From assembly GCF_003334765.1 (NCBI RefSeq), contig NZ_QOWT01000002.1: a stretch of 64,000 bases of DNA; one strand, given 5' to 3'. The stretch comes from Escherichia coli (GTDB lineage Bacteria > Pseudomonadota > Gammaproteobacteria > Enterobacterales > Enterobacteriaceae). Shown here piece after piece: positions 50,389-51,926 of this stretch. The notes beneath the pieces were generated by a model that worked only from the letters and a program-made list of their open reading frames with translations, was not told the origin of the DNA and did no database searches. The position numbers and the translations under genes are program-made. Position 1 is the first letter of the stretch. The number at the start of each line of letters is the position of its first letter.

Positions 50389-50596
50389 GTCAAACCCCTT
50401 TAAATATTTATGATATTAAATATAACAACGTCTGGATAACGACCCGGCCTGACTGAATATCTCACGTTTTCCTGCTTAACATTCATGTTATGATGCTCTT
50501 GAAACTAATAATACGTATGGAATTGTCACTATTTATCTGCTAATGAATTCAAACAATGTCATTCGTTTGATGAATATATTATTTCAGGGAATAATT

Positions 50597-51019
50597 ATGA
50601 CACCTTTAGAACGCATTACCCAACTTGTTAATATCAATGGTGATGTTAATAATCCTGATACTCCTCGTCCATTGTTATCTCTTGAGGATTTTTTTATTGA
50701 CAATAATATCCATGGTTCAATATGTTGCAATGTGATTCCAGAACAATCTCCGCAAGCTATCTATCACCATTTTCTGAAAATACGTGAGCGTAACAATGTT
50801 AGTGATGTTTTGGTAGAAATTACGATGTTCGATGACCCAGACTGGCCCTTTAGTGAAAGTATTTTAGTTATCACCACTGCTTCACCAGAAGAAGTTCAGA
50901 GCTGGTTTGTAGAAGAAATTGCCCCTGATGAGTGCTGGGAAGGATGGTCAGAAGATACGGAGCATGGATGGGTTGAAGTCCCTGTGGGTATGCATCCGGT
51001 TACTTGTTGGTGGGATTAA
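50597..51019 (+). CDS. yfbO: uncharacterised protein (140 aa; track ORF allows a 158-aa form)
   Basis: Track ORF 50543..51019; start set at ATG 50597 (MTPLERITQ...), which has a weak AGGGA SD; the upstream ATG lacks one. Confidence 0.75.
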   Translation: MTPLERITQLVNINGDVNNPDTPRPLLSLEDFFIDNNIHGSICCNVIPEQSPQAIYHHFLKIRERNNVSDVLVEITMFDDPDWPFSESILVITTASPEEVQSWFVEEIAPDECWEGWSEDTEHGWVEVPVGMHPVTCWWD

Positions 51020-51077
51020 AACATTTATATAAACAGATAAGCGGATGTTTACATAAATTTTTATGTGAAGGAACATG

Positions 51078-51926
51078 ATGAAACTTATTCCTCGCAGTAG
51101 TGATATTTCACCTGGCATTGATGGAATTTGCCCGGGGCCTTTTCCTCCGAACGGATTTACCGTACTTACAGATGCAGCATATGGTAACGGAGACTGTTTC
51201 GGTTTGTACTGGCCTATTGGTCAGGAGCATAAACTACCTATAGTGTGCGAAACGTACCATGACGAATGGCGAATCGTACCTGCCTTTTCCAGCATTAAGA
51301 AGTTCGAAGAATGGCTGGAAGTGAATGATGATGATCCCCATGAAAATGGCATCAGCATCGAAGATCAAGACTTTGCAGCAAATCTCTTCCGTGTTGCTCG
51401 GAAATGTCTTTCAACGGGAAGGCTTGATGACGCACTGCCACTGTTACAGCGAGCAACAGAACAATTGCCTGAAGTCAGCGAATATTGGTTAGCACTGGCA
51501 ATCCAGTATCGCCGATGTAAAAAAACAGAAGCTGCAGCACAGGCTGCGCTTAATGCTTATCTTGGCAATTGGGCATTTGGTGTTCCTGACAATAAAGTCA
51601 TTCATTTGCTGTCACAGGCCGCAGATGTCCCGAATTTCCAGGATGATCCTGTGATTCAGTGCATTAAAGAACAAGGATTAGATCTTAGCTTTGGAGGAAC
51701 AAAGGAAAATAATAATTACCCCTTGATGCAGATGTGTGTTGATACTTATTTTGCGCAGAGAAAACCGCTTCAGGCATTAACCCTGTTACATAATTATGCC
51801 TGGATAATGTCCAGTGAAACGACTGCATTTCAGGAACGCTATGATTTTAATATCGATGAATGGCGGGCAAAATTCAGGCAGTTATGTTTAGAGTATTTTG
51901 GCGATAGTCGTACACAGTTCACTTAA
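51078..51926 (+). CDS. yfbP: uncharacterised helical-repeat (TPR-like) protein (282 aa)
   Basis: Track ORF 51075..51926 (tandem ATG ATG start, GAAGGA SD). Confidence 0.8.
   Translation: MKLIPRSSDISPGIDGICPGPFPPNGFTVLTDAAYGNGDCFGLYWPIGQEHKLPIVCETYHDEWRIVPAFSSIKKFEEWLEVNDDDPHENGISIEDQDFAANLFRVARKCLSTGRLDDALPLLQRATEQLPEVSEYWLALAIQYRRCKKTEAAAQAALNAYLGNWAFGVPDNKVIHLLSQAADVPNFQDDPVIQCIKEQGLDLSFGGTKENNNYPLMQMCVDTYFAQRKPLQALTLLHNYAWIMSSETTAFQERYDFNIDEWRAKFRQLCLEYFGDSRTQFT

Follow-up and report, generated by a model that had tools for sequence, protein, structure and literature searches.

Orphan immunity-type cassettes as a candidate role for yfbO and yfbP in a horizontally acquired islet of Escherichia coli

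Polymorphic toxin systems (Rhs, contact-dependent inhibition (CDI), LXG, and type VI secretion system (T6SS) effectors) are said to be accompanied by arrays of immunity genes and by orphan immunity genes, as was reportedly described by Zhang, Aravind and colleagues in 2012. Here, we set beside these systems yfbO and yfbP, two adjacent genes at positions 50543 to 51926 of a 64,000-nt stretch of Escherichia coli DNA (contig NZ_QOWT01000002.1 of assembly GCF_003334765.1, hereafter the window), in which the RefSeq annotation gives the E. coli K-12 order yfbK-yfbL-yfbM-yfbN-yfbO-yfbP-nuoN. No paper was found in which YfbO or YfbP is given a function, or in which the family of YfbO (PF27222) or that of YfbP is described as one of immunity proteins. 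The reading that we favour, with belief and doubt about evenly balanced, is that both genes are orphan polymorphic-toxin immunity cassettes lodged in an islet without a toxin.

This reading is drawn from several likenesses to orphan immunity genes. Like those genes, yfbO, yfbP, and their relatives encode small cytoplasmic proteins, behave as shuffled single-gene cassettes (modular combinations of yfbO, yfbP, and yfbN at the yfbL/yfbM-nuoN site, a chromosomal hotspot holding toxin-less copies), and are spread very widely but patchily across phyla. Relatives of YfbO have Rhs/LHH, SUKH, and Imm33-like neighbours, one of them lying directly downstream of a toxin C-terminal domain (locus L052), and a relative of YfbP stands beside SMI1_KNR4 and Tdi1-type genes; runs with SUKH, Imm33-like, and Tdi1-type genes were seen at three loci (L003, L068, and L069). 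Further, an SMI1/KNR4-annotated gene is present in the islet of E. coli ET350 and as a remnant in K-12, and structure searches with Foldseek returned YfbO-like domains fused to SMI1/KNR4- and tetratricopeptide repeat (TPR)-labelled proteins. The locus is unlike the described systems in that the E. coli islet has no toxin, the cognate toxin family is undefined, and most YfbO and YfbP relatives lie away from recognisable toxins.

Under the immunity reading, the islet would be a set of independent single-gene cassettes (a dead SMI1/KNR4-annotated gene, yfbN, yfbO, and yfbP), each product of which would act alone in the cytoplasm by binding and blocking the C-terminal toxin domain delivered by a competitor; since the islet carries no toxin gene, a cell would gain protection and nothing else. 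A basic toxin, possibly one acting on nucleic acids, would be a fitting target for the compact, very acidic alpha/beta domain of YfbO, and the LHH context agrees with this. YfbP joins a small beta-rich N-terminal domain, possibly SUKH-like, to a TPR-like scaffold. What the analysis shows is how the islet is built, where the two genes start, that yfbO and yfbP do not co-occur, that relatives lie in toxin and immunity contexts, and that selection is purifying; toxin binding, the identity of the toxins, and the role of the acidity are what we infer.

YfbO, in its 140-aa form (50597..51019, plus strand), is a small acidic alpha/beta protein, and the E. coli YfbO cluster and 84 homologues carry a precomputed assignment to PF27222, whose Pfam name is 'YfbO'. 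The isoelectric point is 4.1 (26 D+E against 5 K+R), and six of the seven Trp fall within the last 40 residues, which bears out the acidic, Trp-rich C-terminus described in an earlier note on this DNA; the C-terminal sequence quoted there (..CWEGWSEDTEHGWVEVPVGMHPVTCWWD) matches exactly. Neither a signal peptide nor a transmembrane segment was found in the sequence of E. coli YfbO. A Pfam-A copy scanned without the PF27222 model gave no match to it even at E<=10, and the NCBIfam, PADLOC, and PHROGs scans gave none either, while an exhaustive profile search collected 819 YfbO clusters (50% identity) at E<=1e-3, with the YfbO domain always C-terminal. The family has no solved structural relative. 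Foldseek matches of the YfbO model in the AlphaFold database (AFDB) were family members and, in addition, longer proteins with the label SMI1/KNR4 or TPR in which a YfbO-like domain is present. Some of the former, at 30-40% identity and TM-scores of 0.8-0.9, carry the label of DUF4253 (IPR025349), an uncharacterised family in which AlphaFold-predicted trefoil knots have been reported (PMC11184937); the lack of a Pfam-A match at the threshold given above sets E. coli YfbO apart from it. Two of the longer proteins, A0A2A7MIR4 (Clostridium neonatale, 296 aa, labelled 'tetratricopeptide repeat protein') and A0A6A8ADT3 (Endobacterium cereale, 363 aa, labelled 'SMI1/KNR4 family protein'), each hold a YfbO-like domain, and these fusions combine the three module types of the E. 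coli islet.

When GTDB, with each species represented by a single genome, was scanned using the YfbO alignment, 57 loci came back, belonging to Planctomycetota, Proteobacteria, Actinomycetota, Bacillota, Bacteroidota, Cyanobacteria, and other phyla. In Methylosinus sp. Sm6 (L052), an array of Rhs fragments includes three Rhs-associated core domains. An Rhs protein of this array has its C-terminus at 3831, and the open reading frame (ORF) of the YfbO homologue begins at 3840 on the same strand, which is the classical position of an immunity gene. In a Planctomyces metagenome-assembled genome (MAG; L040), the YfbO homologue has an Rhs-core fragment on one side and a YD-repeat protein on the other. 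Such a same-strand gene just downstream of a toxin end was found at a minority of YfbO loci only. Co-location with recognised immunity families was also observed: the order at L003 is Tox-REase-5 ... LHH toxin, SUKH_5, SUKH_5, YfbO; in Mesobacillus (L068), SMI1_KNR4, DUF6572, YfbO, and Imm33-like genes form a single same-strand run; and, besides the annotated gene of ET350, a Pfam scan of 135 same-strand YfbO neighbours assigned 3 to SUKH families and 2-3 to RHS_repeat, the remainder being miscellaneous. In the window itself, no toxin-like ORF or family match was found beside yfbO, the islet holding only yfbN, yfbO, yfbP, and the remnant, and hence yfbO could only be an orphan immunity copy. 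That YfbO comes from a mobile cassette gene able to stand alone is certain; its identity as an immunity protein is the inference with the most support and falls short of a demonstration.

A YfbO-like gene was also seen on the mobilizable Priestia megaterium plasmid p1 (L072 3780-8992), in a same-strand run with DUF6678, two DUF4304 genes, and small genes.

For YfbP, in its 282-aa form (51078..51926, plus strand), two domains could be delimited. The first, at residues 27-82 (51156..51323, plus strand), is defined by its secondary structure in the AlphaFold2 model, a four-stranded sheet plus a helix, and by its invariant columns (GNGDxFGLYW..G.E...P.V.E..HD....P.FS...F). The second, at residues 100-274 (51375..51899, plus strand), matches a TPR profile and has a helical-hairpin fold, and the suggestion in the earlier note that YfbP is a helical-repeat protein therefore stands. 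The N-terminal pattern (G[FY]-x8-G-x-GD ... P-[PI]-V ... HD ... S-L/F helix) weakly resembles the C-terminal half of the SMI1_KNR4 (SUKH) domains (PF09346, PF14567, and PF14568), with which the domain also shares its beta-sheet-plus-helix make-up; the SMI1/KNR4-annotated gene lies in the same islet in ET350, and its remnant in that of K-12. YfbP is unlike SUKH proteins in lacking the N-terminal half of their domain and in adding a TPR-like body of 180 residues. Its alignment to SMI1_KNR4 is weak (hhalign P=0.007, probability ~5%, 36 columns), as is the single Pfam SMI1_KNR4 match among 32 YfbP members (E=0.036), and the N-terminal profile matched no PDB sequence; an hhalign comparison with a single SUKH_5 protein gave no clear assignment either. 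The profile's best non-self match among local ORFs was a protein with a precomputed Pfam SMI1_KNR4 assignment. We thus treat the SUKH-likeness of this domain as a lead.

Six YfbP loci were found outside E. coli, i.e., in Leminorella, Superficieibacter, Janthinobacterium, Tenacibaculum, Iodobacter, and Zunongwangia. In Tenacibaculum (L069), the YfbP homologue begins 11 bp after a gene for an 896-aa protein and stands first in a run of 13 small ORFs on one strand, SMI1_KNR4 and GAD-like/T6SS_Tdi1_C genes among them; the five other contexts were uninformative. The homologue in Iodobacter fluviatilis (L070 6300-11000) is cargo of a P2-like prophage, located between the tail gene gpD and regulatory/replication genes, and adjoins small genes with HI1420-downstream and weak PIN matches. 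Separately, a 219-aa protein on the Providencia rettgeri plasmid pCHS4.1-3 (L071 5902-6561) corresponds to YfbP residues 99-282 at 47% identity, lacks the N-terminal domain, and is encoded beside an ars operon; it occurs on pCHS4.1-3 and on 25 other conjugative plasmids of the MOBH type from Providencia, Proteus, and Morganella, each reported with two places that match. A scan of IMG/VR returned no YfbP relative.

In E. coli, the three genes and the remnant form a low-GC accessory islet (about 49403..51958) whose junctions are both fixed by alignment to E. coli cq9, in which nuoN follows directly after yfbM. The islet is 2.55 kb long with a GC content of 0.397, compared with 0.513 for the window; its left edge comes immediately after the yfbM stop and its right edge immediately before a GC-rich hairpin on the nuoN side (CCGCCGAGCATGTCGGCGG, 51962..51996), the nuoN terminator, which is common to islet-free genomes and forms the right boundary. 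Among 5426 complete E. coli genomes, yfbO was detected in 994 and yfbP in 986, always on the chromosome, and the islet in ~980-995 (~18%); it is a horizontally acquired element present in a minority of the species. The E. coli islet contains neither an integrase nor attC-like sites, its repeats, whether flanking or internal, stay within chance levels, and searches of it for promoters and terminators returned as many as expected from shuffled sequence. Insertion sequence (IS) elements of the IS903B family and IS1A interrupt the islet in E. coli MB51 (NZ_CP073946.1) and RM14721 (NZ_CP027105.1), the IS1A insertion lying within yfbP; such interruptions fit a dispensable region.

Variant islets occur at this site. 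In ET350 and many other assemblies, the order is yfbM, the SMI1/KNR4-annotated gene, an opposite-strand yfbN-like gene, a diverged yfbO, and nuoN, with yfbP absent. The same chromosomal site in Superficieibacter holds yfbL, yfbP, an opposite-strand yfbN-like gene, and nuoN, and in an enterobacterial relative yfbO directly follows yfbL before the contig ends; these differing combinations indicate one hotspot holding shuffled cassettes. Between K-12 and ET350, yfbO has a synonymous divergence (dS) of 0.155 and a ratio of nonsynonymous to synonymous divergence (dN/dS) of 0.32, while the flanking yfbM and nuoN have dS of only 0.05-0.07 and zero amino-acid change. The excess over the flanks indicates that the islet genes are older alleles moving horizontally, and the low dN/dS (yfbO 0.32, yfbN 0.24) indicates that they encode functional proteins; by this measure, yfbO and yfbN are under purifying selection.

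The position of the ET350 SMI1/KNR4-annotated gene is taken in K-12 by its decayed 3' remnant (49400..49677, plus strand, delimited by alignment to the ET350 gene). The remnant makes up the 'intergenic' region between yfbM and yfbN, is ~75-80% identical to the 3' part of the ET350 gene (L073 3534-4107), and has lost the 5' ~440 bp by deletion; a 61-aa ORF within it (49458..49643) still encodes ..NTVYSVCNSDILCAGNDLSCLMKTELNL.., in agreement with the C-terminus of the ET350 product. In ET350, too, the gene is damaged, with a frameshift at a poly-C run. Its SMI1/KNR4 label rests on the NCBI annotation and on our own reading of an N-terminal motif; neither hhalign nor PDB, NCBIfam, or precomputed Pfam confirmed it, and the 106-aa N-terminal fragment of the gene had no precomputed Pfam or NCBIfam match.

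We acknowledge a number of observations that weigh against the immunity reading. Explicit toxin/immunity hallmarks were seen at only ~6 of roughly 60 YfbO loci, and many YfbO homologues are solitary among housekeeping genes; the YfbP relatives of Zunongwangia and Janthinobacterium are solitary too. An all-against-all BLAST of the 57 YfbO loci revealed no recurrent neighbour family beyond close relatives, and thus a cognate toxin family is not defined. The Methylosinus Rhs C-terminus beside the YfbO homologue has no Pfam or PDB match, and no toxin domain could be recognised in the Tenacibaculum 896-aa protein. Assigning the N-terminus of YfbP to SUKH has weak support. Some YfbO-family members have N-terminal transmembrane or lipoprotein-like extensions, and hence the family is not uniformly one of free cytoplasmic proteins. 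Also, an immunity role does not predict the phage N4 resistance of a yfbO knockout (see below). Finally, a 22-ORF array in Lysobacter sp. CFH 32150 (L051, 1-18468) was considered as an immunity array and rejected: 39 same-strand copies of CAGGCGTTAGSC (0.29 expected), spaced every ~350-600 bp, mark it as an integron-type cassette array, in which the YfbO homologue (about 8103-8540) makes up one cassette flanked by GCCTAAC...GTTAGG sites. Consequently, array-ness alone was dropped as evidence of immunity. Arrays with YfbO homologues in Algibacter (L039 590-10480) and a Verrucomicrobiales MAG (L043 5700-10570) contain 7-8 regular intergenic repeats of 37-147 nt and may be further integron-like arrays, in phyla where these are less studied. 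The Lysobacter homologue, a promoterless-looking ORF among regularly spaced repeats, resembles a cassette of a sedentary chromosomal integron, while the E. coli islet, which lacks attC-like repeats, an integrase, and flanking repeats beyond chance, does not.

Among the extended family members, lipoprotein-like N-termini occur in representatives P0230, P0351, P0279, and P0083, and transmembrane-rich ones in P0276, P0268, P0264, P0241, and P0236, while P0233, P0314, and P0324 share an unknown N-terminal domain of ~240 residues. A Pfam scan of the N-terminal extensions in long YfbO-family proteins returned no domain, only membrane-like noise.

The earlier note had proposed that a small acidic protein and a helical-repeat partner form an immunity or adaptor module, and had named co-occurrence across genomes as a way to check it. 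Its description of the genes was accurate: the ORFs (yfbO 50543..51019, plus strand, 158 aa; yfbP 51075..51926, plus strand, 283 aa) are co-oriented, the spacer measures 55 bp to the first yfbP ATG and 58 bp to the second, and both genes are AT-rich (GC 0.402 for yfbO, 0.435 for yfbP, and 0.259 for the spacer; the window as a whole has 51% GC, compared with 40-43% in the two genes, and nuoN has 0.572). Adjacency, the lack of a terminator-like site between the genes, their joint presence in ~980 E. coli genomes, and the YfbO-like domain within the TPR-labelled Clostridium neonatale protein, a possible domain fusion, would all suit an obligate two-protein module acting as a complex, and co-transcription in K-12 is possible. 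However, the co-occurrence analysis found no association outside the shared E. coli islet. A YfbP-profile search of all ORFs up to 10 kb around YfbO gave no homologue at any of the 57 YfbO loci, YfbO was missing from each of the six YfbP loci of other genera, yfbO stands without yfbP in ~25 E. coli genomes, and the N-terminal extensions of long YfbO-family proteins fail to match the YfbP profile, while the joint presence in E. coli reflects near-clonal inheritance of one islet (>=99% identity). Judged by co-occurrence, YfbO and YfbP are neither a conserved pair nor an obligate two-gene operon; the module is largely refuted already by this result and we regard it as highly unlikely. What survives of the proposal is the idea of immunity, through the toxin/immunity contexts of the relatives, and not the argument from pairing. 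Two small adjacent co-oriented genes, one of them for an acidic protein, also recall a type II toxin-antitoxin locus, from which yfbO-yfbP differs in that neither product matches a toxin or antitoxin family or has a DNA-binding domain, and again in the missing co-occurrence.

Other explanations start from what has been reported for the islet genes. Keio mutants of yfbO and yfbL resist phage N4, are complemented in trans by ASKA plasmids, and remain sensitive to T3, T5, T6, T7, P1, lambda, and LZ4 (bioRxiv 10.1101/2025.09.29.679331), from which YfbO could be a host factor in an envelope or surface pathway needed by N4, perhaps with the M28 peptidase YfbL. This seems unlikely to us, given that yfbO is missing from ~82% of E. 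coli while yfbL is found in every islet-free or variant locus examined, that yfbL adjoins yfbO only in enterobacterial relatives at the yfbK-nuoN site with no recurrent neighbour in the 57 distant loci, that E. coli YfbO has no export or membrane signal and no PADLOC or PHROGs match, and that the phenotype comes from one preprint in which a mechanism is absent. The cassettes might instead serve another kind of conflict, as blockers of intracellular toxins or abortive infection (Abi) effectors or as anti-defence cargo. The integron-type array of Lysobacter and the similar repeat-punctuated arrays, the P2-like prophage cargo beside toxin-antitoxin-type genes, and the YfbP-like helical domain on conjugative plasmids are in keeping with such generic mobile cassettes, as is a screen in which yfbN overexpression scored as blocking the retron-Sen2 toxin RcaT, while yfbO fell below the significance cut-off and was followed up for linkage (bioRxiv 10.1101/2020.06.22.160242). 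That yfbO missed the cut-off counts against this reading, as do the absence of any match to PADLOC anti-phage models at E<=0.1 for YfbO, YfbP, YfbN, and YfbM, or to PHROGs, the absence of YfbP relatives from IMG/VR contigs, and the adjacency to Rhs and LHH genes, which is more specific than a generic role; we judge it improbable. A further reading, in which YfbO (perhaps also YfbN) is a cytoplasmic 'toxin sponge' restraining an endogenous toxin or Abi effector whose release upon loss of YfbO leaves cells refractory to N4, is a speculation to which we give little weight.

The islet could also be functionless horizontally acquired DNA in decay, with its ORFs as relics: one gene is already a remnant with a frameshifted counterpart in ET350, IS elements interrupt the region in some strains, and the DNA is AT-rich, with yfbN listed as induced by SlyA overexpression (PMC5797941) and flagged there in a way that we take as published H-NS binding, the table key being unchecked. 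This view is very improbable in light of the dN/dS of 0.24-0.32 between diverged alleles, the cross-phylum spread, invariant residues, and confident folds of the YfbO and YfbP families, and the complemented yfbO knockout phenotype. Such H-NS binding, if the flags so mean, would fit a silenced foreign islet.

The earlier note had also called the start sites of both genes ambiguous, which is true of the raw sequence, but homologues resolve both to the shorter forms. Full-length YfbO homologues are 139-141 aa long and start at MTPLERI, i.e., Met19 of the long form. A Shine-Dalgarno (SD)-like AGGGA (50586..50590, plus strand, read from the sequence) lies 6 nt 5' of the ATG at 50597, with AAGGA at the same position in the ET350 allele, while no SD-like sequence precedes 50543. 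The 18 in-frame codons of the 158-aa form (50543..50596, plus strand) are thus most likely an untranslated leader. Consistent with this, a comparison of two diverged E. coli alleles shows the 54-nt leader to be less conserved (identity of 83% nt and 72% aa) than the yfbO body (93% nt and 90% aa), although these are small numbers. For yfbP, the tandem ATG codons that had been pointed out are present (ATG ATG at 51075-51080), and 31 of 32 aligned family members begin MK/MQ/ML.. at the position of the second. The SD-like GAAGGA (51067..51072, plus strand) leaves 2 nt to the first ATG and 5 nt to the second, and the usual spacing between SD and start favours the second. Together, homologue starts and SD positions settle, at the level of sequence comparison, YfbO as 140 aa (50597..51019) and YfbP as 282 aa (51078..51926), in agreement with the RefSeq annotation of K-12.

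The third islet gene, yfbN (49672..50388, minus strand, 238 aa), is divergent to yfbO, and its homologue adjoins yfbP without yfbO in Superficieibacter. Between K-12 and ET350 (L073 4102-4818), yfbN is only 79% identical in nucleotides and 71% in amino acids (dS 0.72, dN/dS 0.24), while the yfbM and nuoN flanks are 98-99% identical; a diverged gene between near-identical flanks indicates allelic replacement at the hotspot. YfbN itself gave weak UBA/NAC-like N-terminal matches only.

From these comparisons, a YfbO-YfbP complex or a housekeeping role is not to be expected, and the corrected yfbO and yfbP starts will be needed for cloning. Should the toxin sponge prove true, YfbO would be an immunity-type protein that acts as a phage dependency factor, linking inter-bacterial immunity cassettes, which may also travel in integrons, to the outcome of phage infection. 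For yfbO, yfbP, and yfbN, which are among the uncharacterised 'y-genes' of E. coli K-12, the immunity reading offers a testable role, and for the widespread PF27222 family, with ~800 clusters at 50% identity, it is a first functional hypothesis.

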